DNA of 60,459 nucleotides, the filler included, from Hausera hauseri (taxonomy: Eukaryota): assembly GCA_046269625.1 (NCBI GenBank). It is 11 parts of 11 records of this genome, joined end to end, with 100 filler letters (N's around TTAATTAATTAA, not from the genome) between each part and the next. Parts side by side here need not be neighbours in the genome. Positions count along the whole stretch, not along the records: positions 30,552 to 34,907 come from JBJURY010620109.1; 10 more parts are not named here. The stretch is one strand, 5' to 3'. Under the pieces are notes generated by a model. That model made no database searches. It had not been told where the DNA came from and saw only the letters and a program-made list of their open reading frames with translations. Shown here one piece after another: positions 9,808 through 48,579 of this stretch (positions within the stretch are counted from its first letter, which is position 1; each line of letters starts with the position of its first letter). The translations under genes were made by a program, and so were the position numbers.

Positions 9808-10335
9808 ATGGCAAATTTTGTCATAAGATGGGTTCAGAAAAATGATTGTCAGCCAATACTAAATCTTATTAAAACTTTAGCTCTTTATGAAAAACGGCCA
9901 AATGATGTGAAAATTACAATTAGTACACTTGAACGAGATCTATTTTCGTCAGATGTATATTGCCGATGTTTGGTGGCAGTTTCAGCAAATGACAATCAGG
10001 TTGTTGGTTACTTGTTCTTCAATTATGCTTATTCAACATGGCGTGGAAGGAAAATATATGTCGAGGATTTATTTGTTCTCGAGTCACTCAGAAATCAAGG
10101 AATTGGAAAAAGTCTCTTGATTACTTTAATGAAGTTTGCAAAAGCGAATGATGTTCATCGAATTCATTTGTCGTGTCTCGGTTGGAATACGCCATCTTTG
10201 GATTTTTATGGCCATCTGGGTTTTGAAAATATAACTGCCACGGAAGACTGGAATCTGATGGAAATTAATTCGGATGGTATTTCTAGATTAAGTTTGTTTG
10301 AAATAAGTAATGGCGTTCAGTTTTGGGATTGCTGA
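9808..10335 (+). CDS. Diamine/thialysine N-acetyltransferase (SSAT/SAT2-like GNAT), 175 aa, intronless CDS
   Basis: Motifs LIKTLALYEK, YSTWRGRKIYVEDLFV, acetyl-CoA motif RNQGIGKSL and WNTPSLDFYGHLG. ORF is intact from ATG to TGA. Confidence 0.93.
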   Translation: MANFVIRWVQKNDCQPILNLIKTLALYEKRPNDVKITISTLERDLFSSDVYCRCLVAVSANDNQVVGYLFFNYAYSTWRGRKIYVEDLFVLESLRNQGIGKSLLITLMKFAKANDVHRIHLSCLGWNTPSLDFYGHLGFENITATEDWNLMEINSDGISRLSLFEISNGVQFWDC

Positions 10336-19864: not shown

Positions 19865-20835
19865 AGTAGTGGGAGACTCTATGTTCGCCATCACAACCTC
19901 CCGGGGGTAATCGATAATTCCATATTGCACGTACTAATCGATAGTGCACCCTGTGCACTATCGATCGGCACATGTGCATAGTAGCAGTGTCTTTAGATAC
20001 TGTTGCCATGGCACTCTTGCATATTTCACATATCGATCGCTGCACAGTGCAGTGTTGATCGAATCGATCGGAGTAAAGTGCTAATCGATAATGCACTTTA
20101 GTGCACATCAACTGGTGCGCAGTACAGTGCACTCGCACGTGCAAATGGGTGCAAATCAATAATATCGGTTTTCCAATAATTCCAATACTGATGGTTAGCA
20201 CACTGCACCGGGTGCAATCGATTTAAAAACGGTGCACTATACAAGTGTTAAATTACAATTTAAATCGATCGAGTGGTTCTCGAATAATAACTGTTCGAAG
20301 ATGTAAGTGAGGGCAAACATACATAGGATTTTAGGCCCTAAGGAAGCAAAATTCGATATTACATTGAGCAGGGACAGATAGGAAACTGAGTATGGAGATT
20401 TGGAATATGAAGTCGAATAATCGAAATTCGAAATATCCCCCATATCGAACTAAGCACTATTCGAAAAATCTCATGACATCATTCGACTCCTCATGTACCA
20501 CAACCCTAGAACCACTTAAAATATTTCATGAAAATGTACTATATAGATATAAAATCAATAATTCGAATTACGAAATATGAGTATTCTAAGTTCAGTAGAG
20601 AATAAATCGATAAATCTTTAAGCGCACACAAGTAGGCATCTATACATGGCGAATCCAAATCCGGAGTAAGATTTTCGAATACATTATTTAAAATCGATAA
20701 CTTCGATATTCTAACTCGAAAAGTCGGTCCGGCGTACGTTATTCGAAAAATCTGATGACGTCCTTCGATTACCCATATGTGAAATCTTCTAAACAAATCG
20801 AAATTGGCGCGGTACAATGCACCGCTGTGTATTAA
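19865..20835 (+). mobile_element. Polinton/Maverick terminus (TIR and subterminal region)
   Basis: Starts AGTAGTGGGAGAC, a Polinton-type AGT-repeat end. It is collinear with 46622-47460, which lies upstream of a pPolB gene. Confidence 0.7.
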
Positions 20836-23860: not shown

Positions 23861-23959
23861 AGTTCATATGGGAATGCATCTGATGGTATCAATGTGTGTT
23901 TATTTGCATCAAGGCATATAGTTTTCATTTGACGTCGTCTACAATTTTAACTTTCCTGT

Positions 23960-24900
23960 TATACCCAAGAAATTAATGTTGTAATTTTATTATCTCACAT
24001 TTCGTTTCATTTAATGCAACTCCGGCATCTGTTAGTCGCCTCAAAACTTCTCGTAGGATTCAGCAGTATTTTTCAACCGAATCCGTTTCTATGACAATTT
24101 TTCTTGAAAAATCATCGGGTACCCTTTAAACCGAATGGTAATCTTTTCAAAGTGAACATTCCAAATGCTGTACCGAAATTTAAGTATTTTCGATTCTTTC
24201 CTCGCAGTTGTACTTGACAGTACCCATTGCTCATATCCAAAGTACTGATTATGCTTGTGTTTGCTTAATAACTTAATATTTCCTCAATTCTTGATAAATT
24301 TCCGTATTGGTGATTTCAGCTTTTAATTCACGCGGCGATAATCGACGCATAATCTTAGTTTTCCGTTTTTTATTGTGAGCTAGTACTATTGGTGCACAGC
24401 AGTCTAGGCTTCTAGTGACCTTTTCAATCATATCCTTTTTGATCAACTCTTGCAATGCAGATTCCTAACTTTCTAAACTTGTATTTGGGATTCTTCGGCA
24501 CGGAATATTGATTATAATTAATTCGATTTGACAAGGTGAGGACTTGATCTCGCTTCGGTGACAAACGTATTATGTAGCATATATTGAATGGCTTTAACTG
24601 TACCATGGTCTAGACTCGTACCTATTTCTCCAATAAATATCAGATCTTCTGTTAGGTTATAACTTATCAAGATTTGTTGGCCCCTTCGATAACGACAAAA
24701 TCCTTTGAAACTGCATGAGAATTTTTGCTTTTTTAATCACTGTAATTGATGGTCACTTTCTGGAGTTCCAAAATATGACTTTGCTCTTTCCATCGCTTCA
24801 CCTCTGCTCTCTGTTATTGCGAAATTCAATCTTCAAATATCCGAATCCATAAGACTTTCTGTAACCCTTTGTCCATTAATCCAAAAATAAACACGTCTAT
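23960..24900 (-). mobile_element. Ty3/gypsy (Mag-like) pol remnant
   Basis: IEKV...CCAPIVLA, then ISTLDMSNGYCQVQL...FGTAFGMFTLKRLPFGLKG (24120-24255). Heavily decayed. Confidence 0.75.
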
Positions 24901-27218: not shown

Positions 27219-28212
27219 ATGGATTATAATTTATTTTTGCTAATCGTAATAGTAGTACCAATCAGCGTTATACTTATCATAGCAACAATCATTGCTGTAT
27301 ACGTATATATACATAAACACGTGAAAAGGAATATACTCCGTCATAGAGCAACACTTGACAGCAGACCATTCGAAATTCCTCTAACTAATTTAGAATATGA
27401 ATTTGAAATTTACGGTAATGAGAAATGGTTATCAATTATTAAAGAGGAGGAATATTACCCTTATGTCGAAACCCATGAGGAACAAATGCTACGAAAGGCG
27501 GAACGTTACATGTTAGGATATACTGATAAACCAGCTGACCCAATAGACTATACAACAGTAAGTAACGCTAGAACAACTCCATTAATGCTAGCAGTAGCAT
27601 CAGGAAACGAAGAAAGAGCTGGAGAAGCTATATCTCAATTAGGCGAAGAAGCAGCAGAAATGTTAAAATTCCAAGATACAAATGGCAATACCATCATTCA
27701 TTTAGCCATAATGAGCGAATGTCATGATTTCTTTATACTCATGCTCATTCAATCACAAGCACCCTTACATATACCCAACGTGGACGGAGATTTTTCCTTA
27801 CTGCTCGCCATACGCCATGATCGACATAACCTTGCAACCCTAATATTCGATTATGCCTGCGACAGCAAAGTATTTCAAGCTATTTTTTAACCTCAGCTAC
27901 GCAGTACACCACCGCATAATTCAATAGTATTTAAAAGATTCCTCTTACTGGAAACCTTCCTGAATAAAAAATTCCAGCAGCGGAACCTACCTATTCGACG
28001 TAAATTATGCGCATGGTACATATGAGGAGACACCTCTCATAACTGCGTTTTTGACTGGAACCAATGGCGCAGTCTTCATCCTGATGAGACGACCAGATAT
28101 CCACCCAGAAACCCACAATTATTGAAACTTAATAATCAATGACATCCTGATACGTGACCCAATGATTAGCTCTCTCGAGCGTGAACGCTTACTAGCCATC
28201 ATGCGTCGCTAG
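27219..28212 (+). pseudogene. N-terminal TM + ankyrin-repeat protein, frameshifted after 27890
   Basis: TM FLLIVIVVPISVILIIATIIAVYVYI. Ankyrin repeats TTPLMLAVASGN, QDTNGNTIIHLAI, NVDGDFSLLLAIR, and after the shift DVNYAHGTYEETPLITAF (~28000-28050). AATAAA at 28436. Confidence 0.8.
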
Positions 28213-29029
28213 ATTGTGGTGTAAACATTTTTAGACACTTCATCAGTGCTTTATCCGTGTGTATATTTTAGTGTGACTACTTAGTTCTGTATATTATCAA
28301 CATGTTACTTCTAATCACTAACGTTCCTTATCACATACAACTATTGACACTCTTTATCTTATAGCTATTGTATGTGACTCATGATTGATATAGTATTGCA
28401 TGTTATAGTTTATTTCAACTTATGTCATTAGCGTAAATAAACTTTTATTGTTATGTTTTGTATTAAGACTAAAAATGGAGCCCTATATTTATTTACAATT
28501 TTTTATGACGCACTGGCGTCCTACCTGAGTAGATCAGTTGTATTATACTAAAGTCCGTGAAACTCCAACTCTATCCCAGACAGGTGTATCTATAGCAAAC
28601 TGCAACTGACAGCACCAATTCGTTGTCACAAGTAACCCTTACAGATAAACCAAGAAAATTTGACATTATAGCCATTCATCTCGCCCGTTGCAAATTAACC
28701 GTCAACGTCAATTATAATGATCCTATATTCGACATTAATTACGAACTACTCGATAACTCCAGTGTAATTATTACTATTCCCCTGTGGACTTATTGTCTTT
28801 TACAATTTCCTCTTTAAACAACTGTATATATACTGTGGAAGTAATCCAACCAGAACTTATATACACCCACAATGAGGAATATGATCCGCCAATACATATA
28901 TCCAAACCGTTCTCATCAATAAATAAATATATTTCAGCACCAGAAGGATTGTCCCTATCAGATTTGGAACCCTATTCAACTTCGTATCCTATAATTACGC
29001 CACCACTCAACCCAATCCGACAACTACTA

Positions 29030-29517
29030 ACCAGACCATCATTGACATTGCTATACTAGATTATAAAGGCGAAATTTTATTCCAGAAACAAATTTACCCT
29101 AGACATGAAGTCATCGACTAGATAACACCTTTTACAGGCATAACAGACGATCCCACCCTAAATAAAATCGATAACGAAGACTTCCTACCCCTAACACAAT
29201 ATATACTGAATCATAAATTCATTATAACAACACAGATAGATCTACTTCTATGCTCATTGAAACTACCCACTACTCATACAAATCATTTCTTCGATCTTAA
29301 CCATCACCCTATCGCTGCAAACTTCTCGACAGACCCAGTACTCATAATTCGTCTAAGTGAACAATTATGGAACATCACCGCCATTCTTATGCATCCATCG
29401 TTGTTAATACAAGTTCACTTGCTTAGACAAATGAATAACTACCTGACAAACTCATTTTATATTGAAGACGCTGTTGATTGTATAGATCTTAATACCACTG
29501 AATTAAATCTCAATTAA
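29030..29517 (+). pseudogene. DEDDh 3'-5' exonuclease-like domain (REX4/ISG20-like)
   Basis: IDIAILDYKGEILFQKQIYPRHEVID*ITPFTGIT...FFDL...IRLSEQLWNI reads in one frame. Confidence 0.65.
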
Positions 29518-29532
29518 TTCTACTTATTTTCA

Positions 29533-29931
29533 GATCTCCTGCAATGTGTGGAATGCCGAGTAATCCTTGATGTTGTGTACCGACTTATACCATGTCTACA
29601 TATGCTATATATGTATTGCATATATCAAACCCGAGTCAAAGCAAATTCATTGCCATATTGGACAATTTGTAAATCCGAGATTAAATATTGCATCCAGCAC
29701 ATAGCTTATTCATCTCATGATGACCAATCCCTACTCGATGCTAAAACATTCAAAATCCTTAAACCTACTGATCATACCGCATATTACTACACCTGTGATG
29801 TGTCAACCCTTTCTCTATTACATATTTCCAGCTCCATACATGTTGTTTATGCAGTAAACCCAACAAAACAGCCTACCAGTTTTGCTGTTGTAACACCGAA
29901 TATTGCTCGCATTGTTACCACTGACACTTGA
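29533..29931 (+). pseudogene. C3HC4 RING-finger protein (degenerate)
   Basis: CVEC-RVILDVVYRLIP-CLH-ML(Y)MYC...(W)TIC-KSEI, preceded by acceptor-like TTATTTTCAG. Confidence 0.6.
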
Positions 29932-30451: not shown

Positions 30452-30770
30452 NNNNNNNNNNNNNNNNNNNNNNNNNNNNNNNNNNNNNNNNNNNNTTAAT
30501 TAATTAANNNNNNNNNNNNNNNNNNNNNNNNNNNNNNNNNNNNNNNNNNNNCCAAAAAGGATGAAAACAAGACTCATTTAATGAGTGAATGAGCTAATTG
30601 TTATACCAACTTTTATAATAAATTTCTAGTGCTTAATTCAGTCTTACAATCACCGAATGACGTTGATGTTGGAATGGTAGATACGCGATCTACTAACAAG
30701 GAACATACACTGAAGACGAATTATCTGGAATCCACATATGGTCGAGGTGATTAAACTTGTGTAGGTTTTG

Positions 30771-31237
30771 TTAAATAGCGATTACATCTTGAGCCATGTT
30801 TAACGCAGAATGTGTGCCCGGTGGTCGAAATTTATTTATACGGCAGACATCTGAATAGATGACCTGACCAAAGGTGACACGCAGTAGGTCAATAACTCCT
30901 AAGAGATTTTTAATTGAGATGGAGAAAAGTGACATAAATAATCGAACATTGAACGATACTAAGACTCTATTATATGTGTTGCACGCAAAATGTGTCGATA
31001 CACAATTTCAAAATCTGGGGCGGAATCAAGGTCATGAAGGATAATACCATGACGGTGTGACTCAGAATTGGTAATACGAACAAGGGGATTAATAAGAGTG
31101 TCATATCGGAGAAGAAGTAATTCAGAATTGAGTTCAAATAAAGTGACAGCTATACATACGGATACCGATCCAGACAAAGCAGTTGAATAGCCAATGAATA
31201 GAATGTCGTCATTGACAGGTAGTCGATTAATTCGCAT
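30771..31237 (-). pseudogene. DEDDh/DnaQ-like exonuclease downstream of gypsy pol
   Basis: YDTLINP..ITNSESHRHGI..DLDSAPDFEIVY, then SMFDYL, VIDLL and THSALNMAQD (ExoIII-like). One stop and one frameshift. Confidence 0.7.
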
Positions 31238-31694
31238 GTAGGAACGGTCGAGATAGGCGGAGGGGGGAGAGTTAATTAATTGAAATCCGGTAAGCTCCGT
31301 TTTTCATCACGGTGGGATTCCCAGTAACGAAGCCAAGGGCGGTCATTATGATATTCCAATTCGAGGTAGATAATAGTCGGCACAGAAATAATATCGATTT
31401 ATGGATATTGGTCCTTCCAGATTTCGGATGAAACGAACAGTGACCTTTGCCGAGGTATTACGATACTATTTGTAGGGTCATTTATACCATTTATGTAAAA
31501 TATTAAAGATTCTTCGGCGAGTTATAGCATAAAGGTGCTGAGATAATGAGGTAAATCCGGTTTGCGACTCACATTAGCAACAAAGGTTCGTAACAGTCTT
31601 TTTGTAATATGAGGGAAGCGATGGATTTTAATGAGACGATTTTAGATACTGTTGCCCTTGTACTTGTTGCGGAGGGCATAAATAGAAGGATGGA

Positions 31695-33750
31695 TTAAGG
31701 ATGGGCGTAAATGTCCTTTGGCAGCGATTGACTTTGTGTGTTTCGATTGAAAATATTCATAGAAGATAAATCTGTCAGTTGATAACACTGAATAGAGCAA
31801 TCAATAAAACGAATCTCGAAGTTATAAGTAACAGCATCGCCGAATGTTTCATAACGTTTGGGATTACACAATGCTTTAGACAGTTTATGATCTCGTTGAC
31901 ACTGATTTGAAGGAGAAAATTGAAAAATTGGTTGGGAGGTATCCATTACATCAGAACAGTTTGAATGTATCACTAAAAGGAAGGAAAAATTTAGAAAATC
32001 CGCCACAGCAATATGCCTAGCTGCTGCAGCTAAGAAAGGAAGTAGAAAATATGCCGCAGCAATGTTCCTAGCTGCGCAGCTATCTGTCGTTGTCATAAAA
32101 TATCTTCATATATAAGGGATTTTTAGAACGATTTTGGCGATTACGTATATATAGAATATTATTAATTACATCATAATCAGTCGAGTTTTCATACAGATTA
32201 GCAGAATCAACTTCCAAAGGTAGTGATCTACATTTTTGACCGAAAAGAACAAGGACAAATATCAAAATTGCTATAAAATCATTAGGTACAATAATGAAGC
32301 AAAACCGAAAAAGCCAGTTGGTGTGAGTAGATGTAGCAGTAAAGTTGAAAGCGTCAATGGAGTACTAGTATAGTATATTGTTTTATGAAGGGGTCTGAGG
32401 ACATTAAGTGTCTTAGGGGGAGTCTTTGGCCGTGAAGTAGCTAACTGGATTGTATGGTCCCATTTTCGATTCAATGTAGCCGAATAAATAGTGCAGACCA
32501 CTGGTCCAAAATAAGGACGTGAACAGACCTGTGTTCTAAAAATAGTATACAAAATGCACAAGGGTAAGGAATTATGGACACACCTCAAAATGTGCGGTGA
32601 AGTGGTATTGGCATGAAAAGCGATGTGTTTTTAAAATTGTAACCTGAACTTCATTCCATTGCTTTATAACTGTTTCTGTAGATACAGTAGAACTGTATTG
32701 TAATGTATAAGGGATTTTAGTACTTGTCAATTGTGGCAATATGGAAGTAGTGTTCCCAAAGTTCGATAGCAATGTAACATTTAATAGAACGAATTTGTTA
32801 AAACCTGGAAGATGAATATAAGATGAATAAAATCATTAACCTTCAAGAATATATTTCTCTGACTCATGAAAGTACGAATATGTGTATACATAATACCATT
32901 TTCAAGAGATTGAAATAGTTGTCCTTTTTCATCAAGGCCGGAGATTTTGATGGCTTTATGACATTGTCCAATTTGAATAAAGCAAACTAAATTTTCAGTA
33001 ATGATAAGCACCCATGGAATGAAATATGTTTCGCTTAATTTATCACTTTGAGTTGTAGATACCATTTCCCAAAGATAGTGTTTTCGTATATTCAGGGTTT
33101 CTGGTGGGGACATTAACCACGTAAATTTCAAATATCAAATTGTTGCATTAAGGTAGAACGACATTTGTAGCCAATTTGACATGTTACATTGAAAAAATGA
33201 ATACTGTTTATTTGTGGCATTGTTCTGTGACTCACCAACTATTTTACTCCTAATTTCATATCCTTTTTTTGTTGCCACGACCATTATTCCAAGTCGATTA
33301 TTTATTTCCTGCCAATAAATGAAATAAGGAATTTTAGAGTTGTCCTGGAATATCGGCACTTCAAATATTTCTGAATCAAAACTTTTAATTTGTGTACCAT
33401 TAGCCCATTCTTCAATTGTTTGCTGTAACGGGCAAATAAATGAAAATCGGTATACACACTGTCCATTAGGTGGTTCAACTTCATATACTGAAAATATTCC
33501 TCCAAAACGATCCTTTACTGAAAACAGCCGTATTACAAGTAGATTTTTTGCATGGGATATAAAGCTATAAAATCGTATATCTTTGTTTTGTGTGCTCCAA
33601 CCCCACTGAATACTGAAACCATTAGTTGTATTGAAAACACATACAAAGAAGTGCGATATATAAAGCTGTAAACTTGGGGTTTCCTTCTATATCAATTATC
33701 TTGGCATTATTATCTCCTGTATTTTCGAACGCAGTAGTTTTATTGAAAAT
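31695..33750 (-). pseudogene. Env-like / multi-signal membrane polyprotein immediately after gypsy integrase
   Basis: Reading continues past the IN stop into FTALYIALLCMCF, then an ectodomain with N-X-S/T sequons (NTT, NGT, NAT, NMS) and Cys. Further hydrophobic segments are FIPWVLIITENLVCFI and FCFIIVPNDFIAILIFVLVLFG. Confidence 0.55.
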
Positions 33751-34907
33751 TTAGTAGTCTTTTGAAGCTTTCTTGCACCGTTCAGCCGCTATTGCAACAA
33801 TTTCTTCACGTTTTCCAATCTTTTTATTGATAAAAATATTATTTTCTGTTACCCTCTCGACTTTATGAGGTTCTTTCCACGGACGAGCCAGTTTTGGGGA
33901 CTTACCTTTTTTGACAGCTGGTTCGAACAACATTATATAGTCTCCTTCCTTAATTGTATGAGGTCTAGATTGTTTGTCAAACTGATTTTTATATTGCTTT
34001 TGGTAATCTAAGGTTAATGACTGAGCTAGTGCCCAGGCTTTGGTCAATCGTTCTTTACGATATTGGACGTAGTTAGGCTCGTAGGACGTTAATGATTCAT
34101 CGGGAATCATTTCTAAATCTCGTGGCAATAATGGATCTCGTCCGTACATTAAGAAAAATGGTGGTTGTTGCGTAGCGGAATAAGGTGCCGTTCTTAGGGC
34201 GAACATACAAGTGGGAATATATAAATCCCAGTCATCTTGTCTGTCATTTGTAACTGTTGCCAACATTGATAGTAACGTACCGTTAAGTTTTTCGACCATA
34301 CCATCACAACATGGGTGATAAGCGGCTGTTTTAAGTTTGTACATAGAAAACATCCTGCATACTTCTGAAAACATGTTGTTAACAAATTCTGTACCTTGAT
34401 CTGTTAGTATTTTTCTTGGGGCTCCGTACCGAAATACGATTTCCTCTACAAACAATGCAGCTACCGAAAATGCCGAAAAAGCTTCAGGAAATCTAGTTAA
34501 ATAATCAACGAAAACCAAAATATATTGATTTCCACTCTGAGTTTTAGGAAGCGCACCAACGATGTCCATAACTGTAAATTCCATAGGACTTGCTGGAGGT
34601 TGGATTGGATGCAAGGGAGGTTTGCATTTATAGCTTCTATTTCTTTTGGTTGCACAAACAATACAACTATCACACCAATTTTAAATATATTTATGTAGTG
34701 TACGCCAATAGTGTTTTCGCTTTATTCTACCAAGGGTCTTTTTAAAGGCTATGTGCCCTGCAAGAATTTTATTGTGTTCCTGTTTCATTATTTCACTATG
34801 TCGACTTTGTGGTAATATTACCAATTGTCCATTATTATACCAATATCGTAATAATTCAGATGATATAGCATACTTTGCACCTTGACTTATTAGATGTTGT
34901 ATCAACT
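33751..34907 (-). mobile_element. Ty3/gypsy integrase (HHCC zinc finger, DDE core, GPY/F-like module)
   Basis: EHNKILAGH..KT, CIVCA, VMDIVG, VDYLTRF, LTDQGTEF, YHPCCDGMVEKLN, KLARPWKEPH. Confidence 0.95.
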
Positions 34908-35739
34908 NNNNNNNNNNNNNNNNNNNNNNNNNNNNNNNNNNNNNNNNNNNNTTAATTAATTAANNNNNNNNNNNNNNNNNNNNNNNNNNNNNNNNNNNNN
35001 NNNNNNNAAACTGGGCAAATCGGTACCCGTCCTCCGAAAAGTCCAGCAGCGCCGTTCCAAAAATGTTATTATTTGTGCATCGCTAAGCCATAAGTCAAAT
35101 ATAATTTAACTTACTTCGACAATGAAATAACTTCGTCACTTTGATTAGTAATTTCCAAATGAAAGCTATCATCTTTAAACCTACCGTCTAAAACTCTTTT
35201 ATAACAAATAATTAGCAACATTTCGATCTCGACTAAGGCTCGAGTAATGATCTTGCTTACCAGCATGTATTTTGCTAATCTCTATTACCATCACTTTTGA
35301 ATTGTTCTTAATGCCCTGAGTAACCAGAAAGAAGTCATCTTTTTTAGAATTTTTCTTAAATATAATCTGATAAGGACTGATCGATATTGAATATAATTGA
35401 AAATTTTTCTGTAATGAATGTCTAGTTTTCATTTGCACGTCATCAATATCAACGTTGGGAGTTTTCTTTTAATTTAGGCTAATGTACTTTAACAATATGA
35501 ATTGCTTTGGTTCTGTCCGAATTTTCAATAGATTTCATTCGCAATGAATTTAATTCACTACCTACTTCGGATAGACTAAATTTGATTATATGTGCAATTT
35601 GTTCAGCTAATAATGTCAACGATGTACCACGTTCGTTTTCAGTTGTATAAGGTGGGTCGCATAGTCGAATTTTGTTCTTTATTAAATAATTTTTTATCTT
35701 TAATTTCAAATAGTAATGTGCCATACACAAAATGAACTA

Positions 35740-35865
35740 TGTAGCGACAAGGCTCCCTGCACGAGGACAACGGGTCCCGGTTAAGGCACAGCAAAAACGG
35801 AAACACGAAATCAAATGTGCCCGACCAAAATGGGCCACGGAGCAACACAGCACGTTGGCACCACA
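35740..35865 (-). repeat. Candidate short 3' LTR of the CsRn1-like element
   Basis: On the minus strand, PPT GGGGGAAGTGA is followed by TGTGG...CTACA. Confidence 0.55.
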
Positions 35866-38800
35866 TCACTTCCCCCGTGGCAAAGTGAAAACTATAAAGC
35901 AAAAAAGCAACAAAGAGCAAAATCCACAAAAAGGGAAAAGTGTTTGTGCCATATTTGGTTTTTGTGTGAACCAAACGTTGTACTTTGTCGAAATTTTGTT
36001 CTCTACTGTACTTGCTGAAAGTAACTCTGCGTGTTGTGCTTGCGTATTTTGAGTTTGCTTGCCGAGGTGTAAGTTGAGAAAAATATGTTGGATTTTGTCG
36101 TGAGTATTGTTTTAGTTGAGGAAAGTGAAGATTGCAAAGGGTAGTTAGTAAAAGGTGAAGATGAAAGAAAAGGTGGAGATGTGAAAGATTGCAGATTTAG
36201 GAAAGACTCAGAAGTTGAGAAGGATTGAGGAAAGATATGTAGTAAAGCAGAATTAGAAGAATGCGTGTTTGAAGAAAGTTGAAGATGTGAAGGAGGCTGA
36301 GAATTTGGAAAAGGTTGAAAAACAGAATCGAAAGAAGATTTGTCTTCAAGTGAAAGTCGTGTGGTTAGATAAATTGGATGGGAGTGAAATGGTGAAAAAG
36401 GAATCAATAAAAGTGTCAATAGAGTTGGTGTTGGTTTGTGTGTCTTCGGGAGAGTCATCAACTATGAAGGCTGGTTTTAGATTTGTGATGTGCACAATTT
36501 GTTCTTTACCACTTTTAAGAATAGTAGCTGTATGAGAGGATAAAGATAAAAGTTTGCATGGTCCAACGTATTATGGTTGGAAACCACAAGGTGAATGATT
36601 GCGAAGCCAGACGAACTTAGCGGTATACAAATCATTTGGTATATTTGATTTGTTATGATTTACTATTTTGAAAAATGAGTCTTTGTTTAGTGTAACAAAG
36701 TGATTTTGCGCATTCCGAATGAGCTCATCTGTTGGTGTATCGTCCAGATCAGTTAACTCATAAAGTGCTCCAATCGGTGTTCCAAACAGTGCTTCAGGTG
36801 GTGCACAACCCGTGGTGGTGGCGAGTGTGTTTCGCCAGCCAAGCAGGACAAGAGGTAAGAGAGCTGTCCAGTTGCTGTGTGGTTCAGTTAGGATTTTAAG
36901 TGAGATCTTCATTGTGCGGTGAAATCTTTCTAGTAAATCGTTCGTTTGGGGATAATATGGAGAAGTGTGTATACATTTAATCCCCAAGCGATTAACTAAG
37001 GATTTAGAGATTTGACTTGAATTGTGGACCTTGGGCCGTGATTATGAAGCGAGGGGAGCCAAATCTGCTGATCCACGTTTTGATGAAGACCTCAGCGATA
37101 GTGTCTGTGTTGGTGGAACGTAATGGAATGGCTTCTGGCCATCGAAAAGAACGATCCATCAAGGTGAGTATGAATTGATGACCGTTGTCTGGACGAAGAG
37201 TGCCGACTAGGTTTATATGGACGGATTCAAAACGGTACATACAGGGGAAGTGATATAATGGTGGCTTCAGATGCTTGTAAATTTTGAATTTTTGGCATGC
37301 CACGCATTCCTTAACCCACGCCTGTACATCTGATTTCATCAACGGCCATATAACACTACGTTGCAGAAGACGAAAAGTTGCTTTGGCACCCGGATGATGA
37401 AGAGAATGTACGTTATGAAATGCAGTTTTCTGCAAAGATGGAGACAAAATTAGTTTGTGGTTAACGGATTTAGAAGTGTCATAGTCTATTCCGTCAATGA
37501 TTTGGTGCCATTTAAAAGACTTAAGAATTTCCTGTGCTGGTACATTTGTGTAAGCACTGCCTGTGAGAAAATTGGAGTGACTCTAATGATGTTAACCGAT
37601 CTAGACAAAAAATCAGCCACCAAATTGTCAGTGCCTGTAATATGTACCGTTTTAAAATTGAATATTGACAAGTACGATATGTGACATTCTTGTCTAGGTG
37701 AAGGAGTTTTCATATCCATGATTCGATTAAGAGGTTTGTGGTCAATTTGGATCGTAAAAGACCTGGCAATTAACAAGTGTGAGAAATGTTTTACAGCTAA
37801 TACTATAGCTAGGAGCTCTCTGTCGAAAATTGAGTAACGACTTTCTGTTGATGTAAGTTTGCGAGAATACAATTCCAGAGGCTCATTGACGCAATTAGAA
37901 ATTTGATGCAATATTGCGCCAACTGCTGTGGTAAAGGCATCTGTGGTTTATATTAGCTTTGCGTCAGGCTTGGGGTAAGCTAGAATTTCAACAGTTTTTA
38001 AACCTTTACGTAAATTATCAAACTGGTTGACAAGTTCGGGAGGCCAGTGAATTAATTGTTTCTTCTTTTCTGACTATAAAAATGCAAACGGTGCAGTTAA
38101 TTCCGAGCAGTGTGGCACATATTTGTGATTAAAGTGGAGTGTGCCAAGGAAAGAGTGAATTTCAGTTGTTCGTGGCAATTGGATATTCTTAAGCTGAGTT
38201 ATGCTGTCTTACTGAGGAGAGTGGCCAAATTTGGTAATGACATGACCAAAGAAATGGATCTTGTGTTGGAAAAAAAGAACATTTGGCGAATTTACTTCTA
38301 AATTATTTTGGTGGCGGCGTTGAAAAATTGTGCCTAAGTGCTCAGAATGTTGTTTAGGAGGTGACGAATCTATGAGAATCTATGTATGGGAATGCAAAGT
38401 TTAGACCAGCAAAAATTGTGTCTATGTGCCTTTGAAATGTTTGAGAGGCACTGCGCAGACCAAAGGGTATGAAGACATACTCAAAAAGATCGAAAGGTGT
38501 TGTCACAAATGTTTTCGGTATATCAGCAGGTGAGACAGAAATCTGATGGTAGGCTTTATGAAGATCGATGGATGAAAATATGGTGTTGCCATTGAGTGTG
38601 TGTAGGATATCATTGATGAGCGGTAATGGATATGCGTCCATTACCGTAATCGCCACAGGGCCTGAAAGTACCGTCCTTCGTGGGCACTATGTGTAGAGAT
38701 GAGACCCAAGGTGACTTTGATCTTCTTACAATTCCTGTTTTTTCTAATTCATTGAACTCCGATTCCACGGCATTGCGTCTGCGTGGAAAAAGTGGCCTGC

Positions 38801-40980
38801 TCTTCTGTTTTATTGGTCTTTGGTGTTCAGTGACGATGTGATGGTACGTCGTAGAAGCAGGCTTGAAATTTGGGTCTTTATTCAATGCTCTGGGACAAGA
38901 AGTTGTGATGTAGTCACGAAGAGTTGTATCCAGTTGCATGAATGGGGAGGTAATGTGAGAGGTTGTTTCGGTGTTGGCAATTGTTTTTGCTGTTACTGTA
39001 TGAATGTAAAGGTCTCAATCGGAATTCTCAACATTTAATTTATCTAGTTTAACAAAAAAAGATTTCTTTAGTATAGTCTCCGGCGCTCCAGTCAACTGCG
39101 CAACAAGTGGTGCATTATTTGGTGATTTTGTATTATTAATTGTATTTTTTATCACGCGATGCTGTCTGCAGTCGACAAGTAAATTGTAATGTGATAGAAA
39201 ATCAGAACCTAAGATGGGAGTTTTGATATCAGCACCAATAAACTTCCATTTAAAAAGTTCAGGGAAATGTGCTAAGGTGAAGGAGAGTTGTGCAGTACTA
39301 GAAATGAGTAAGGCTTGCCCGTTGGCAGTAAATAGCTTAGCAGTGGTGGGAAGAATTTTTAAAGAATGGAAAAATGAAGGTAGTAATGAGACCACTGCAC
39401 TCAAATCAATCAAGATTTTAGTATGGTGTGGAGAAGATGCTAGTGCAGCGTCCAATAGGAAAACAGCATGAGTACGGCTATTGGGTGATGAAAGATGGCC
39501 TTTTCCAGAATTTGCCGTAGTTTCTGGAGGCTTTAGGCGTTTTTTTGAGTGGATGAAGAAGTTGGAGTGTTCTGGGTGAAAAGCGTACATCCAGATAAGC
39601 AGCGTTTTGCATTGCCTTTGAACTTACTGTGATAGATTCAGACTACATCTCGTGATTGGAAATTCTGCGTATAGAATTTACAGCCTACACAGCAATTTTT
39701 GGCATTTCGATTGAATTTGGTTTGATAATAACACTATCCGTCGCAAAGGTGACTGGGCACGCTTGGAGTTTACAGATGACTGTATACTTTGATTTGCGCT
39801 AAATCGATTACGACGCAGAAAGGACAAAGCGTTGAGTCTGCTAGATATAGCCGAAATAGCCTTATGTAAGGCCGAATTTTCGGCTTGAAGATTTTGAATT
39901 TCATAACTATATTGTTTGCGTTGTTTGATGAGTTTGTTGATTGTGGATGTGCAACTATTAGAGGTGATTGCGTTGACTGTAAATCTAAAATTGTTGTATG
40001 TGCATTATTGGTATGAAAAATTTCGTAACTTTTGCCCGCACGTTGTGCCACTTTGTCTAGCGACGTACAATCCTCAACTACAGTGAGGAGTGCGCGTATA
40101 TGGATTGGCTGAGCTGAAAGGAAGTACCGTCGGAGAAGATCGGCGTTATTTTGTTGGTTTACTCCCAAAATATTCAATTGTGATAGTGAAGTGCGCAGAA
40201 ATTTAGTGGGCTTTTGCGGCCCAAGAGCGTTCTCATTAAAACGTTTTTGAATTATAGAGTCCAGAGAAGGCTCAGTTGCTTTAGGCACAGCGTCCAATAG
40301 AGATTTTTAGGGGTCGGAGTGATTAAAAATGTCAGACAGATTAGTAATGAAGGATTTTATGTTTCGCGGCAGATGAATCAGCAAACTGTTGGCGTTTTGA
40401 AAGGAATCAGTGATTTTATGTGAGGCTAGCCACTTTGCGTGGAAGTCTAGCCATGTTCTACCTGAATTCTGACTATCGAGGAGGAAGTTAACGCACTGAA
40501 GGTGTGAAAAAGAGGAAGGAGTTGGCGACACGAAGGTTATGTTAAGCGACTTCTTAATCTCGTCGGAGTTGGGGTAGAGCTACCATGAAGTTTAGGCTGA
40601 AGCGTGATACACATGGATGAAAAGGGATGCAAAAGAAATCTGTACAGAGGATCATGTGGACGGATGATGAAGTCATTGAAAATCAAGGCAAAGTTAAACA
40701 TGTCGGTGGTGCGTAAGATTGAAGTATGTAGGTCTTTTCCTAAGGTATTGTGATTTGCGGTATGTGTATGGATGTGCATGTTGTATTTAAAAATGAAAAT
40801 GGAAAAAGTTGGCTGGCTGGAGCCAGGGGCGTGATGTGATAATTCTGCGCTGCGTGACACGCGATCCACAGCCCGGGACAAACGACCGAGCGCGCGACCC
40901 CGCAAGGATGGCACAGCGATGCCGAGCAGCAGAAATCCCCATCAAAGAGTTCGGCCGTTGATACAAACACCGATTTGGAG
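35740..40980 (-). mobile_element. Second degenerate CsRn1-like Ty3/gypsy element (leader, gag, PR, RT, RH, IN, S/P/T tail, PPT, LTR)
   Basis: Paralogous to 1-4185 throughout: LGPQKPTKFLR, ILGSDFLSHYNLLVD, FGLRSASQTFQRHID..PYID, YSIFDRELLA, HHPGAKATFRLLQR, LLERFHRTMK. Confidence 0.95.
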
Positions 40981-42375: not shown

Positions 42376-45300
42376 TCGTCAAAAGTTAATGTTATAAATA
42401 TTTATTAATTACAGATATTGAAACAAATTTTTCGTTTATGAAAAATAAATAATTTTAATTATTTATTTTTGAGCCATCATTTTCCTCTCTTTTATGATCA
42501 TTGTTCACTATTTTCAACCATTCCACTCTTTGAATCACTACCATCTTCCATATTTTTTAGCTCCCACTGATGCGGTGAAATTTGTCGAATTAGTTGATAC
42601 GGTACTTCGAAATGATAAGCGTCTTTTCTTCTTTTTTGAGAGTCTACTTTCACGAACGATTTTTGTCCAATTTTAAAATTTCCTTTGCTTCTCTTATCCC
42701 TCACCGAAATTTTCCATTCAGTTAGGTGCCTCTATGGTATACCTTTTTCCGAAGGAAATCTTTCCGCATATTTTTTGGAATTACTGGTTGTGTGTAGTTT
42801 TGATCTTTATATACTACGAAACCGTCTGTCATCTCCAACTTATCTATCATATTGAGAATCACTTTTTCCACCATTGAGCCGTCTAACTCACATTTTGTTG
42901 TATTTCTGTACATTTTCCCTGTTCGTCTTTTATCCATTGAAAGATTGACCTAACTAATAAGGAATTACACGTGCCTTTGTTTGCTTCAGATCAGCATGCC
43001 TTGTTTGGCACTGAACACACATGCTCATACAACCGCGACAATCCATCTGCGTTTCCATGATGTTCGCCCTTCCTATTTTCCAGTGTAAAATTAAAAATTG
43101 CCATGTTTTCTAGCCATGTCTGGAATTGTGGTTGATTTGTAGCCACTCCACGACGCCGCAATGAGCGCGTAATTCTTGATAAACCTTGTGTAATAGTTTG
43201 CCAGACCTAAAAATTCTCTCAACGACCGCGTACACTTTGGGATTGGAAAATTCCGAATTTCTTACTTTTAGTTGATTTGTTGCCACTCCATGATTATTAA
43301 TGATACGTCCGAGAAATATCAACTCCGAAACACCGAATCTACACTTTTTGGGATTCACATTTAGATTGGCATTTTTCAACCTTTTCATCACTTCTAGTAA
43401 TCCACAATGTTTCAAAATCGTCTTTGAGTAAATCAACACGTCGTCTAAGTATATGACAACTTCCGCATACAGCAGGTTTACGAACAGTGCATTCATCAGT
43501 CGCTGAAAAGTTCCGGGATCTGTTGAGAGGCCAAATGGTACTCGGTTGAAACAATATTGTTGTGATTTCGTGCAAAAGGCTGTTTTCCCTGAGAGTCTTC
43601 AACCAATGCAACTTGATTATATGCTTTACTGAGGACTTTCCGGCATTGGAAAAGAAATTTTCTTTGCCATTTCATTTAACTTTCTAAAATCCAAACATTC
43701 TGATTCCTCATGTTTCTTTTGAGTGGCCACTAAGAGCAAATTTTATTTATTTTTGCATTTCCGAATAATATCCGCTTTCTCCAAGAATTTCAAAAATTCT
43801 TCAATTTTACCTTCCAGGTATACTGATTGTCTTCTAGGATTCAACAAAAAATTGGTTTACCCTCAATTTCGATTCTGTTTTACCAGATCCGTAAACTCTA
43901 AATCGTACTTATGTTTCATAAACACCTCATCATCGCGTTTTACATCCTCCCTTAATTGACCATCTGCAATTTCTGGTTTTCCCATGGTTATCACTGCTGC
44001 TATCTCGTTCGAGACTGAATAACCTCAGTTTTCATTAATTTTACACCAAATACCATTGAAATTTCTATACCCCAATGGCTTCCGGCCTGATTGTTTTTCC
44101 TACCATCAATTCAATTTTATGTACTTCAGCATCTTCCTCTACATTGACTTTTACTTTCCCAAACAGCCATCACCTTCCGAAAAGGCTCCATGCAATATTA
44201 AGGCGCACTTAGTTAGCCTAGGTTGTCTTATCGCATTCAATTCTTTTCGCCGATTACTGACACACTATCCAACAACATTTTTATTCCACACTTTTCAACT
44301 TCACCGTCTGTCTTTTCCCACTACTATTGCTGCATCTTGATTTTGTAAATTTCCTACGCCAACTCTACTGACGAAATGCTTACAAGCAGAGTTTCTGGTG
44401 TTTAAAGGTTCCATCACGTCATTTTCATATGGCACTATTTCATCCAAATATTCTTCATACATCTCTTCCGCACATCGGATTTACCTGTTGTAATTTGAAA
44501 GTTTCTAAATCCGTGTCCACTTTTCTCACAGATCAAACATAAGTTGTTTAAAGAGCAATTTCTTCTAACGTGCCCGTGTTTTCAACAACAAAAACAATCA
44601 CCTTTATACATCACTTCCTTTTTCAGTACTGGTAACTTTTCTGGCTTAATAATACACAGAGTGTGTTGGAACCTGTCTTCCATCTATGATCTAACTGAAA
44701 GGTGGTTTCTTGTCCTGAGCAACATTACTGTTCATCGATCTCTTTTCATACCTTTCTTTTCTCGGATATTCTGCTCTTCTGTTGTATATGACCAGTCTTC
44801 TGTCATATTCCATGTGTTTCACGCACGGTGTATTTCCGAGATTTCTTTCGGGAGACTGTACCGCATCCCGGAAGGACTTCTTCACTTGAGCCATTTCTCT
44901 GTACTCCTACAGTTTGGCCATTTTCAAAAATTTTAGTCTCCTCCCTCATCTATTTTTGGTTTGACAATCCGCTGTCTTAGCACTGTTGAACTAATTCGTT
45001 TTCTAAGATTTTCTTGAACGAATTCTGTTCTGTTAACTCGAAAACTTTATTGGTTGCGTGACTCACCCTGATATCAAAATTTTTTGTCCTTTTGATACAT
45101 GTCGTCCCATTCGACCAAGTCATTGAGAGGGTTCACATTTCTCAGACATAGTTTTAAACCACATTGTGACCTCTTCTTTCGACAGTTGGTTCACCTTTTT
45201 TTCTTTAAAATCCGTCCACAGAGTTGTGGCTTGTTCCGTTAATAAAAATTCACATAGCTCCACAAATGGCCGTAGCGTGTATCATATATTCCAGTCATTG

Positions 45301-45582: not shown

Positions 45583-45682
45583 NNNNNNNNNNNNNNNNNN
45601 NNNNNNNNNNNNNNNNNNNNNNNNNNTTAATTAATTAANNNNNNNNNNNNNNNNNNNNNNNNNNNNNNNNNNNNNNNNNNNN

Positions 45683-46620
45683 AAGCAACCGATTTTGTTC
45701 GTGATGGCGTTGCTATACAGCGGATGATTCTGCGGGTAATTGGAATTGTCCAGTAGTCCATATGCCATTATTTGTCGGAGCAGTTGGTCGATGTTGACGT
45801 TTTCCAGCTCAAGGTTAAAGCTGTTTGTGTTACCGGCAACGATACTGATCTCACAGCCGTCAGACATTTGCCGGTAACGTGCCAAGTCGCGATACTGGAG
45901 CTCGTACATTCAAAACTTGCTAAGGTCCAATACCACTTGTCCGATGCAACTTGGCCGGTCCAGAACGACTTCTTCCCAGTTTAACAGTACTGCAACTAAT
46001 CCATTGGCAATGTGCATTGACCGCCGAAACTGAACCTTACTCGTGTATGTAACCAGCCGCTTTTCAGAGTTATATAGGCGCACATTGAACCATTTTTCAG
46101 ATTCTCCACAGTTTTTCCGTACAGGGAATTGTTTTTCAGCTTGTAATAGCCCTTTTCGAACTTTGTACAAGATGCGTCTCGTTCCTCCGAATTTCCATCC
46201 ATGTACGCCTGGGATATGTGAGCCTGTGCAAATCGGATTGCACAATGCAGCCCTGTGACGCGTACACCAAACTGCATGTAAAATTGCAACACACTCCAAT
46301 GAACTATGTAATTTTGCTTGAGTTCATGCGCCATAAGCAGCTTCTTCACCTTCAAGCCCGGCTCACATTGGCAAATTTTTGCGACCGTCAGTTCATCCAG
46401 AAAGTCATGCAGCTCATCTGGTATCATGAGATCGACGTCCATCAGGTTTCCGACTGAGCTTGCTATGTCTGCTCGTGGTAGGTTGACCATTATGTCGTCC
46501 AGATATTGTCTGTCGACTATCCATTCGAATGAACCGTACGGCAAGGGTTGTGAAAGCGCCCAACCGTACATGTTATTAATGTCGATATACAACTGTGATG
46601 TGGTATCATCATTAGTTACA
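45683..46620 (-). pseudogene. Polinton/adintovirus-type protein-primed DNA polymerase B, C-terminal polymerase domain
   Basis: Motif A YIDINNMYGWALSQPLP, motif B KLKNNSLYGKTVEN, PSCIGQVVLDLSK, and motif C-like AGNTNSF. Confidence 0.92.
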
Positions 46621-46621
46621 T

Positions 46622-47780
46622 GGTAGTCGGGGAAAATAGCGGTTCGGTCCTATCCCTCCGGGGGGTGTGCGTTGTGCATTTGTGCAGCGTAGGATTGATG
46701 GAATTGATTGCGGTCAAGTGCTAATGGATACAGCACATTGAGATGCACCTTGATATATGGTGTGCAGTACAAAAACATGTGTGCAAGTGTGCAAAAATCA
46801 ATAATATCCAATTTCCGGTATTTCCAATATTGATGATTAGGATATGTGACCGGGTGCATTCAAACACAAACATGGTGTAGTATATGAATGTGCAGTTAGA
46901 ATTTAAATTTATCGATTAGATATCGATTAATATCGATCCAAAGTGCAAATTGGTCAGATTTTCCTAGGTTTTTAGGCCCTAGAGAAGCAAAATTTGATAT
47001 AACATTGAGCGGGGACAGATAGGAAATCAACTATGGTGAACTCGAATTTCGAGTCGAAAATTCGAATATTTTTGAGCTCGAATATTGAAGTTCGAACTAT
47101 TCGAAAAACCTAACAGCGGGAATCGATTCATCGTATTTGAAAACCCTTATGTACATAAAAATTATTCCATGAAAATGTACAATATAGGCGTAAAATCAAT
47201 ATTTCTAATTAAAAAAACGTGCATTTGAAGCCCAGTGAAGCGGACATCGATAAATCTAATAGCGGGGCTGGATAGAAAACCATATATGTCGAATGGGAAT
47301 ATGATGTTAGATGATCGAATACATTATTCAAACTCGAAGAATTAACGATTCTAACTCGAAAACTCGACCAAGCATGTATTATTCGAAGAATCTAATGACA
47401 TCATTCGATTCCCCATTGTCGAAAACCTATATGGCAATTAATATTAGTGCGGTGCAGTGCATTGCAATGTATGAAAACAAGGTTTTTCCAATATGGTAAA
47501 AGTACTTAATAAATACTAAGTAATTCTTATATTGATTATGCAATTGAGGTGAATTTGGAGGTGAAGCACACTGAAATCAATAAATCTTTAAGCACACATG
47601 GATAAGAAAGCATATGTGAAGAATCCAAATCTGGTGTTAGATATTCGAATACATTAATCGAACTCGAAGAAATATCGATTCGAACTCGAATATTCGGTGA
47701 AGCGTGCATTATTCAAAGAATCTGATGGCTCTAATCGATTCCACATATATGAAAACCTATTCAAATATGGCGCCGCCACA
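46622..47780 (+). mobile_element. Polinton terminus/TIR region with ~330-bp internal subrepeats
   Basis: GGTAGTCGGGGA...GTTCG...CCTCCGGGGGG aligns to 19865 AGTAGTGGGAGA...GTTCG...CCTCCCGGGGG. The body is collinear with 20150-20820. Confidence 0.7.
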
Positions 47781-48077
47781 TATTTAAGTCATTTGATGCA
47801 TTAAAACAATCGCACGATGTTGAAAAGCAATACGATGGCATAATTACGTGGCACGTTCATGCATTTGATGCATTAGAACAAACGCATGATGTTGACAATA
47901 CAACATATTGGCAACAATATACAGTGCCAAATTTACCCCGCCATTAAAATTATTTCCTTACATGAGTTTTGTTTTACTGCATCAATTATCAAAAATTAGC
48001 AGTGTAAGTTGACAGCTATATTTTTCATTATTTGCTAATTCACTTCTGCGAATGGTAAGTTTTCTTATTTGCGTTCA

Positions 48078-48519
48078 TCAAATAATTGCTTTGTTTAGAT
48101 ATGCAAACTTTACACAGAGTGCTTGGCTCCAATCCATGAGCCGGAAAATTGCAATAGTATTATGATGAAATACTTTGGGCATATGTTCAACAGGGTTCAG
48201 TATTATATATGCCCTACATATGAGGTAGTGTGCGGGACAGGGTACAAGGAATTTTACAATGTCCATATATAGCATTTGATTTCCTTCGCCAAGTCGAAAA
48301 GACCAATATGCCAATAACGTCTTTTGTGTCAAAGGAAAACCAAAGGCGCAGTTTATTGTGTATTGCACATGTACAATACATAACTCTGAGAATTTCCATA
48401 ATACCATGAGGAGCTATTATGGCCACAAATTGAATAGGATCCTCTATTATATTTGCCCAGGATGTGAGACTGTATGTGATGGAGAATACATACAGTTCCA
48501 TGAATAACACAAGCATCAT
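48078..48519 (-). pseudogene. Small hydrophobic multi-TM ORF (frameshifted), divergent from polB
   Basis: Overlapping ORFs 48214-48519 and 48078-48407 contain several hydrophobic segments. Confidence 0.35.
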
Positions 48520-48579
48520 TTGAGTGACTTCGCATCAAAGTCCAAGAAGATCATATTTAATGAGCATTGACCAGTTGCA

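Follow-up and report, generated by a model that had tools for sequence, protein, structure and literature searches.

Which genes follow the integrase of the Ty3/gypsy element on this Hausera hauseri contig, and do they belong to the element? The window, meaning the whole stretch of DNA analyzed (60,459 nucleotides), is a chain of repeat-rich contigs containing nested elements; no tRNA genes were found. Positions 30552-34907 are one 4.3-kb contig bounded by two 100-bp N/stop-linker spacers. On its minus strand, a gypsy integrase is followed by a broken membrane ORF, a further ORF, and a DnaQ/DEDDh-like domain, in agreement with the single contig, single strand, and gene order described in an earlier sequence-only reading. 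The contig starts inside Pol, and LTRs, gag, RT, and target-site duplications fall beyond it. On balance, we favor reading it as the decayed 3' half of a multicopy Ty3/gypsy copy with two likely accessory genes, a predicted orphan glycoprotein and a probably dead DEDDh domain. That integrase, membrane ORF, and nuclease are the anatomy of one element is the likely case.

A gypsy integrase followed by decayed coding sequence

The integrase (33754..34905, minus strand) was delimited by profile, homolog, and motif searches and comprises a zinc finger, a core, and a C-terminal GPY/F-SH3-like module, with one in-frame stop at 34683. It matches the Integrase_H2C2 profile at an E value of 1.9e-13 and rve at 2.9e-7, slightly below the rve cutoff. 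Thirty Pol polyproteins were found as homologs at E<=1e-30 with identities of 27-36%, and the Pfam domains listed for them include rve in 29/30 and RT in 27/30. The HHCC and DDE motifs are retained, and the GPY/F-type module scores 60 bits against a profile built from the 30 Pol homologs. Judged by this finger, core, and module, the integrase is of the Ty3/gypsy type, as had been proposed. Searches for its relatives gave none among viral contigs and 6 distant loci among metagenome contigs.

The sequence downstream had been described as decayed coding sequence, and simulations bear this out. A run of 300 codons in it contains 1 stop, whereas none of 300 dinucleotide-matched simulations had fewer than 3, and it has five open frames at least 100 codons long, compared with a mean of 0.6 and a maximum of 4 under simulation. 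Beyond the integrase stop (33753-33751), the same frame stays open for 41 codons (33625..33753, minus strand), inside which a signal-like hydrophobic segment of 13 residues starts at 33672 (mean hydropathy, 2.31). The same position, 33672, has a motif resembling a 3' splice site, but it is weak, because this motif occurs 18 times across the contig. The long membrane ORF is in a frame other than that of the integrase; with the stop and the frame change, the integrase does not run into an env-like polyprotein in this copy, as it had been said to do.

A predicted single-pass glycoprotein

The membrane ORF has about 550 codons, is broken, and has the predicted anatomy of a single-pass glycoprotein. 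Translation, sequons, and hydropathy place a predicted ectodomain of about 450 codons at 32299..33686 (minus strand), which contains aromatic residues, Cys, and N-glycosylation sequons. In this copy the ectodomain has a stop near 33135, and its reading frame shifts near 32810, 32600, and 32340. The first 183 residues hold 5 sequons and 4 Cys, and the whole ORF holds about a dozen Cys. The sole strong predicted transmembrane helix is at 32242..32298 (minus strand; 19-residue mean hydropathy, 2.68), and the remaining hydrophobic pieces reach means of only 1.1-1.8. A predicted cytoplasmic tail follows at 32083..32241 (minus strand) with the tyrosine motifs YENS, YDVI, and NPLY, which we take to be sorting or signaling motifs. 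The proposal of a membrane-protein ORF downstream of the integrase, with a signal-like segment, sequons, and Cys, is thus upheld, while that of at least two more hydrophobic segments, or a multipass topology, fails on the single strong helix that runs from 32298.

An envelope identity, also proposed, found no support in the searches. The furin motif R-x-K/R-R is absent from six open pieces, and no family or structure match came from Pfam, NCBIfam, PHROGs, or PDB, even at E values of 1-10. No relatives of the first 301 ectodomain residues were found among 171 candidates or 3233 longer ones, and a single-sequence fold model of the ectodomain had a pLDDT of 32 and was unusable. Neither the furin site plus fusion peptide nor the F glycoprotein homology of F-type Env was found, and a query of the broken pieces gave no profile match to herpes gB. 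FN3 repeats had been suspected by eye, but a profile built from 13 bacterial FN3 domains gave 0.4 bits at best, and neither Pfam nor PDB supported them. From sequence, the product is therefore best described as a predicted membrane protein with no relative detected, and identity with a known viral envelope is not supported.

Translation and a duplication scan located an ORF without family assignment (31505..32105, minus strand) between the glycoprotein ORF and the nuclease domain. It consists of 136 open codons and two more short open stretches, holds 6 Cys, and has no match in Pfam, NCBIfam, or PHROGs. A 44-base tandem duplication at 31981-32075 is skipped by some other copies.

A DnaQ/DEDDh-like domain without its catalytic acids

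The DnaQ/DEDDh-like domain (30699..31258, minus strand), a likely pseudo-nuclease delimited by profiles and motif columns, begins 2.5 kb past the integrase. In this copy its reading frame shifts near 30980 and meets a stop near 30772, and the exonuclease motifs that had been pointed out earlier sit at 31258-30774, split over two frames. A profile built from 15 bacterial RNase_T-family domains gave the domain 11.6 bits, a score reached by 0/1000 shuffles (shuffle maximum, 4.3); over 60 frames, the top two hits of this profile were the domain itself and a DEDDh-like domain on the neighboring contig. In an Atlas search, all of the 10 best family-bearing matches belonged to the RNase_T family or clan (scores, 0.89-0.91). 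DnaQ models matched at E values of 0.063 and 0.084, phrog_192 was the sole match in PHROGs (E value, 0.016), and the best phage match was a 3'-5' exonuclease (E value, 0.07). None of these matches passes a curated cutoff; they are several weak searches in agreement. Pfam gave no match, nor did the second half of the domain queried alone. The single match in a search of 1.84 billion proteins, P0035, is a bacterial repeat protein and was rejected as spurious, because its score is summed over repeats. Together with the purpose-built profile, the agreeing searches sustain the resemblance to a DnaQ/DEDDh exonuclease noted before.

At the level of the fold, and on weak matches, the DEDDh motif pattern is present as an ExoI-ExoIII scaffold (P..I..HGI..D..AP.F, H.A), with 6 of 16 conserved columns matching (T, P, G, N, H, A). 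The four D-E-D-D acid columns hold G, S, F, and M in this copy, and an alternative ExoI register likewise offers no acid. The ExoIII Asp had been reported as replaced, which is correct but too narrow, since the same holds for the other three acids. Of the 12 bases concerned, at least 8 depart from acidic codons (binomial P at 15% divergence, 7e-5; at 20%, <=6e-4). With all four acids gone and more change than random decay gives, a pseudo-nuclease is likely; of the two options "dead or pseudo-nuclease," the second is favored over death by decay. An active accessory nuclease is contradicted, as no catalytic acid is left in this copy. Judging from the acid columns as read in this copy, this DEDDh-derived domain is probably a pseudo-nuclease.

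Other copies and the end of the contig

Contigs of public run X1 cover 30/30 bins of the 4.3-kb contig with diverged copies of every part, which confirms the multicopy family. The numbers of distinct contigs are 8 at one place in the exonuclease, 12 and 16 at two places in the membrane ORF, and 12 at one place in the integrase. The nuclease, the spacer upstream of it, and the ectodomain are covered by pieces that differ from this copy by 12-15%, and one contig bridges the integrase end and the membrane ORF (33428/33830). The distance from integrase to nuclease is not spanned by any contig (the longest piece listed covers <330 bases of the 4.3 kb), and cover is thinnest at 31720-31930, between membrane ORF and nuclease, with 1-2 contigs at the places listed. 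Of the in-frame stops in the cargo ORFs, two lie within the 40 of 783 differences listed, and each is changed in every covering contig; in our reading of the rows listed, length variants also coincide with three inferred frame junctions. Diverged copies thus lack several of the breaks of this copy, which argues that the cargo ORFs are genuine and multicopy. Among the same 40 of 783 differences, there is no excess of silent changes in the cargo ORFs (6/23; P = 0.53) and no sign of selection, as expected from postinsertion decay.

The last 147 bases of the contig (30552..30698, plus strand) belong to a different repeat, far more abundant than the rest. By its signals and copy flanks, it is probably the R-U5 end of an oppositely oriented LTR, with AATAAA at 30617, a CA end at 30698, and flanks beyond CA that vary between copies. 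No polypurine tract was found in the contig; the 20 bases preceding the repeat hold 6 purines, and the best 15-base purine windows fall within the membrane ORF. We rejected these bases as the 3' LTR of the gypsy element because there is no purine tract and the signals are on the opposite strand. The earlier observation that no PPT or LTR of the element is evident downstream of the integrase stands, and it is likely accounted for by this opposite-strand LTR-like repeat cutting the contig.

The neighboring contig of the window repeats the theme of a membrane ORF followed by a degenerate DEDDh-like domain. Its membrane ORF has ankyrin repeats after the transmembrane helix, and a RING-like finger is also present on the contig. 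No sequence kinship was detectable between the membrane ORFs or the nucleases of the two contigs, and its ectodomain gave no Atlas or PDB match. A suspected integrase tail at its start was not significant (70/1000 shuffles).

Alternative explanations

The membrane ORF could be a captured receptor-like decoy with no part in particle entry, in an element that spreads only intracellularly. The three tyrosine motifs of the tail, the missing furin motif, and the ankyrin repeats behind the transmembrane helix on the neighboring contig, a layout more receptor-like than env-like, fit this idea, which we find possible but doubtful: the FN3 likeness is unsupported by the FN3 profile, Pfam, or PDB, and tyrosine sorting motifs occur in the tails of viral envelopes too. 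A highly diverged true fusogen in an errantivirus-like element with DEDDh cargo, most plausibly of the beta-rich herpes gB type, would explain an ORF directly after pol with a signal-like segment, sequons, Cys, and a C-terminal transmembrane helix, and the available text of PMC13524379 describes gB-type Env as common in metazoan gypsy elements, with a variably conserved furin site. However, not even marginal database matches or relatives were found in the searches above, and ORF3s named env from such general features often are not, according to the available text of PMC5408684; we regard this fusogen as quite unlikely. For the orphan glycoprotein that we prefer, an env-like role falls a little short of an even chance.

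The nuclease-like domain could also be a separate insertion, another mobile element or a viral fragment, lying downstream of a gypsy element that has a single extra ORF; what would then be left is an ordinary gypsy element plus a single orphan ORF. The window is made of repeat-rich contigs with nested elements, copy cover is thinnest just between the two genes, where no record links them, and the nearest look-alikes of the domain are bacterial and viral. Against this, both genes are on the same strand, with no junction and neither inverted nor direct terminal repeats found between the integrase, membrane ORF, and nuclease genes in the contig. Nor is there a PPT or LTR between membrane ORF and nuclease or, among the 6 of 215 rows listed, a peak of loose ends between the genes; copy numbers are similar at both, and the neighboring contig has the same order. 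We consider an insertion improbable. That the family encodes an active DEDDh exonuclease whose acids were lost only by decay of this copy is very unlikely. The copy is broken throughout, the ExoIII general-base His is present in it, and bdelloid elements carry intact DEDD enzymes (available text of PMC5408684), but the acidic codons have changed beyond expectation while the catalytic residues of the integrase are kept, and 7/7 run X1 contigs over the His codon differ at its middle base, so that the His is not common to the copies.

Possible function and relation to known elements

Under the single-element reading, the element would copy itself by the usual RT/integrase route and express the glycoprotein from its own RNA, spliced or internally started. 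The glycoprotein would go to the cell or particle surface as an attachment, entry, or trafficking protein replacing a classical Env, and its tyrosine tail may steer it through membranes. The dead nuclease might still grip the 3' ends of nucleic acids, and such gripping could shield the RNA or cDNA of the element against small-RNA trimming and the 3' exonucleases of the host; this shielding is a tentative idea. The fullest version seems to us unlikely, namely, an undescribed complex, retrovirus-like gypsy lineage in this animal, its surface glycoprotein having no kinship with F, gB, or retroviral Env and its DnaQ-derived pseudo-nuclease blunting host RNA or DNA defense, with the neighboring contig as a second, deeply diverged family of like design.

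Cargo-carrying gypsy elements have precedents in bdelloid DEDDy elements, tunicate Tor, and planarian Burro, and the present element is a further variant. The bdelloid LTR retrotransposons Juno and Vesta, as described in the available text of PMC5408684, likewise place an ORF for a DnaQ-like 3'-5' exonuclease behind a gypsy-type pol. There it is an ORF3 in place of env, RNase D-like DEDDy, catalytically intact, and directly after pol, whereas ours is DnaQ/DEDDh-like, has none of the four acids, and comes after a large membrane ORF. Of the bdelloid and nematode precedents cited earlier for DEDD exonucleases, this confirms the bdelloid one; "nematode" has 0 occurrences in that text. This intact DEDDy enzyme is the one known DEDD cargo (PMC5408684, available text), and a retained dead DEDDh domain, if real, would be a concrete candidate for an element-encoded counter-defense factor in animals. 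Maelstrom and EXD1, inactive DEDD derivatives that retain RNA binding (PMC5408684, available text), also have the DEDD fold without catalytic acids and may serve as a model for a binding-only role; they are host piRNA genes, while the present domain is element cargo, likened to them by acid loss and not by sequence match.

The env-bearing invertebrate gypsy elements described so far, among them the metazoan errantiviruses, have F-type or HSV/gB-type fusogens according to the available text of PMC13524379, the main text of which does not use the word "nuclease." They share with the present element a multicopy nature and a gypsy pol followed by an ORF with a signal-like start, ectodomain, and transmembrane helix; unlike them, ours lacks a furin motif, matches no profile or sequence, and has more ORFs downstream. 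If true, the orphan glycoprotein would be a third kind of surface protein for invertebrate gypsy elements. Tor elements of Oikopleura also encode a divergent transmembrane glycoprotein after pol, from spliced or internally started RNA, but Tor Env is furin cleaved and, in the available text of PMC4402516, Tor has no nuclease cargo. The planarian Burro elements are giant gypsy elements that likewise carry abundant accessory cargo, in which ankyrin and RING-type motifs resemble those on the neighboring contig (available text of PMC6431247). Burro cargo and an F-like Env are in one polyprotein between gag and pol, upstream of PR-RT, whereas the cargo of the present element lies downstream of the integrase.

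Integrase and coding sequence downstream

On the minus strand of the contig at 30552-34907 lies a gypsy integrase (34905-33754) with one in-frame stop, recognized by Pfam (Integrase_H2C2, E = 1.9e-13; rve, E = 2.9e-7) and by Pol polyprotein matches. The HHCC finger and all three catalytic acids are kept. Identity to the Pol polyproteins (n = 30 at E ≤ 1e-30) is just 27 to 36%, so there is no close relative on record. The frame ends at 33753, five residues past the aligned region. A longer Pol tail, or even an integrase-cargo fusion, may have existed, because Pol extends 47 to 535 residues further in the 15 Pol matches checked and 41 same-frame codons with a hydrophobic segment stay open after the 33753 stop. 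The sequence-only reading had the integrase running into an env-like polyprotein; in this copy it does not, as the long ORF downstream lies in a different frame. Position 33672 carries a splice-acceptor-like motif whose phase fits that ORF, but motifs of this kind number 18 in the contig.

This membrane ORF runs from 33686 to 32083 on the minus strand as open pieces with three frame changes. A run of 300 codons carries a single stop, where none of 300 simulations gave fewer than 3, and five open frames of at least 100 codons were seen where simulations predict 0.6. The coding signal downstream of the integrase thus exceeds chance. The predicted layout is a signal-like start, then some 450 codons in which sequons and Cys occur, one strong transmembrane helix, and a tail carrying three tyrosine motifs. 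The signal-like segment, sequons, and Cys stood up as first described; of the two or more further hydrophobic segments, just one is strong. Since the others are weak, we read the product as a predicted single-pass protein. No match was found in PDB, Pfam, NCBIfam, or PHROGs, and no relative of near or longer length in the protein collection. The known errantivirus env types described in PMC13524379 are F-type, with a conserved furin site, and gB-type, with a furin site conserved in some cases. No furin motif occurs in the open pieces, and an F-type assignment is not supported. General features of this sort produced mistaken env calls earlier, according to PMC5408684.

A nuclease-like domain without its catalytic acids

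The first half of a DEDDh-like domain (31258-30962, minus strand) gave weak, concordant matches: RNase_T clusters in the Atlas (scores 0.89 to 0.91; the 10 best family-bearing matches all agree), two DnaQ models among three matches (E = 0.063 and 0.084), phrog_192 as the sole PHROGs match (E = 0.016), and a phage 3'-5' exonuclease as the best of 10 records (E = 0.07; 25% identity over 83 residues). With a purpose-built profile of 15 bacterial PF00929 domains, this region ranked first of 60 frames; with the break bridged by X it scored 11.6 bits, equalled in 0 of 1,000 shuffles. Profile searches do return weak DEDDh-type matches, but Pfam has no match for the domain. The second half searched alone gave none, and the sole match in the largest search was discarded as spurious.

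Six of 16 conserved alignment columns are matched. The proposed replacement of the ExoIII Asp holds, but the change is wider: the catalytic columns D, E, D, and D, conserved in 13 to 15 of the 15 sequences, read G, S, F, and M. Across these four codons, no fewer than 8 of the 12 bases depart from those of an acidic codon (P = 7e-5 if divergence is 15%, 6e-4 if it is 20%). Between a dead copy and a pseudo-nuclease, the two options offered earlier, these statistics and the intact catalytic residues of the integrase make random decay unlikely, and the domain is likely a pseudo-nuclease.

Diverged copies in a public run

Run X1 comes from a single public study, possibly one linked to the source of the window, and contains 0.42 of the sampled words; it was aligned to the contig at 80% likeness. 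Its 2,380 matching contigs cover all 30 bins, an unseparated share of them lying on the terminal repeat at 30552-30698; by identity, 247 are at 99% or above, 467 at 95 to 99%, 1,025 at 90 to 95%, and 641 under 90%. We examined 40 of 783 differences, 12 of 19 length variants, 15 of 22 joints, 6 of 215 loose ends, and 8 of 2,403 pieces. Among places listed, contigs number 4 to 8 for the nuclease, 4 to 16 for the membrane ORF, 5 to 12 for the integrase, and 1 to 2 for the unassigned ORF (about 31505-32105, minus strand) between membrane ORF and nuclease. Among pieces listed, those 12 to 15% diverged span 30814-31115, 31074-31362, and 32821-33134. Multiple diverged copies of the cargo ORFs therefore exist.

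Two stop codons of our copy are among the differences listed, and both are changed in every covering contig. When the length variants listed were read against the translation, some lay at three of the inferred frame junctions. Minority length variants elsewhere indicate that other copies have decayed too. The middle base of the ExoIII His codon is changed in all 7 covering contigs. In 23 classified cargo differences, silent changes are not in excess.

A probably hidden 3' end

Depth in X1 rises to about 197,000 in bin 30552-30697, versus 19 to 890 in other bins, and 52 records part from it at 30698 into sequences that agree poorly. The most frequent of these begins with what looks like a primer-binding site. 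The terminal repeat has AATAAA at 30617 and a CA end at 30698 on the plus strand, and no purine tract precedes it on the minus strand. It is likely the LTR end of another element that inserted, facing the other way, where the nuclease ORF ends, and would so hide the true 3' end. The earlier remark that no PPT or LTR is evident is borne out for the PPT.

Interpretation

The data show a gypsy integrase, cargo ORFs with coding signal, DEDDh motifs that lack the acids, and multiple diverged copies. The earlier observation is partly confirmed and its interpretation partly supported. We propose that integrase, membrane ORF, and nuclease-like domain would belong to one element. Among the joints listed, one X1 contig connects the end of the integrase with the membrane ORF, and none connects the membrane ORF with the nuclease, a point for the less probable rival view that the latter is a separate insertion. 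Under the one-element model, the glycoprotein would be made from a separate RNA, spliced or internally started, as described for Tor env (PMC4402516), and would act at the surface or in the particle. It could instead be a diverged gB-type fusogen, against which the empty Pfam, NCBIfam, PHROGs, and PDB searches speak, or a receptor decoy.

The probably dead nuclease might bind 3' ends and thereby protect against exonucleases of the host or small-RNA trimming. The model for such a role is Maelstrom and EXD1, both named in PMC5408684. Loss of the acids by plain decay is the unlikely alternative for the reasons of codon statistics and integrase integrity already described.

In literature searched by title and abstract start, most subscription journals and repeat databases lying outside the search, no paper described a gypsy element in which a membrane ORF precedes an inactive DEDDh domain. 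Element lists accompanying PMC13524379 could include this family. In the accessible parts of these sources, DnaQ-like accessory domains are credited to bdelloid work (PMC6338049), DEDD refers solely to RNase H (PMC4408406), and Burro and Terminon cargo are described (PMC6431247).

Other contigs of the window

The neighbour contig (25298-30451, plus strand), a separate record, contains a long broken ORF whose end comprises a transmembrane helix at about 27225-27300 and, at 27580-27865, ankyrin repeats (Ank_2, E = 3.4e-7), a layout reminiscent of a Notch-type intracellular domain. A degenerate DEDDh-like domain follows at 28927-29514 (second of 60 frames with the PF00929-domain profile, 9.0 bits; reached in 0 of 1,000 shuffles, maximum 7.9), then a RING-like stretch at about 29540-29680 (best PDB match a RING E3, E = 1.3). 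No integrase was demonstrated in this contig, and sequence kinship with our element was undetectable. The arrangement suggests a possible second cargo-carrying family of like design.

The window is a series of short contigs whose order across the spacers carries no known meaning. Each of the ten spacers (e.g., 30452-30551) is 100 bases long and consists of a 12-base six-frame stop linker with 44 N on either side; as these joins are artificial, adjacent parts may be non-adjacent in the genome. Gypsy fragments occur in several other contigs. Two decayed elements of one other family (1-4185, plus; 35008-40980, minus) share 66% identity over 1,627 bases and show 25 to 28% protein identity to the integrase described here. 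More Pol fragments lie at about 42980-44020 and 23950-24380. Judged by motifs, pieces at 45631-50416 resemble a family B polymerase, protein-primed and of the Polinton/adintovirus type; 20055-20835 is related to them at 69% identity. Cys-rich and transposase-like ORF pieces, read by eye at 12356-15317 (minus), likely mark a DNA transposon. An A-rich contig (4286-8980) has several unassigned open pieces of 100 to 160 codons, all on the plus strand, and 50841-60459 is a purine-rich simple repeat of about 9.6 kb (AT skew about 0.85). At 9808-10335 (plus) lies an uninterrupted host-type diamine acetyltransferase ORF, one that would suit an animal host; it is SAT1/SAT2-like, with SAT1/SAT2 as top PDB matches (best E = 5e-26).
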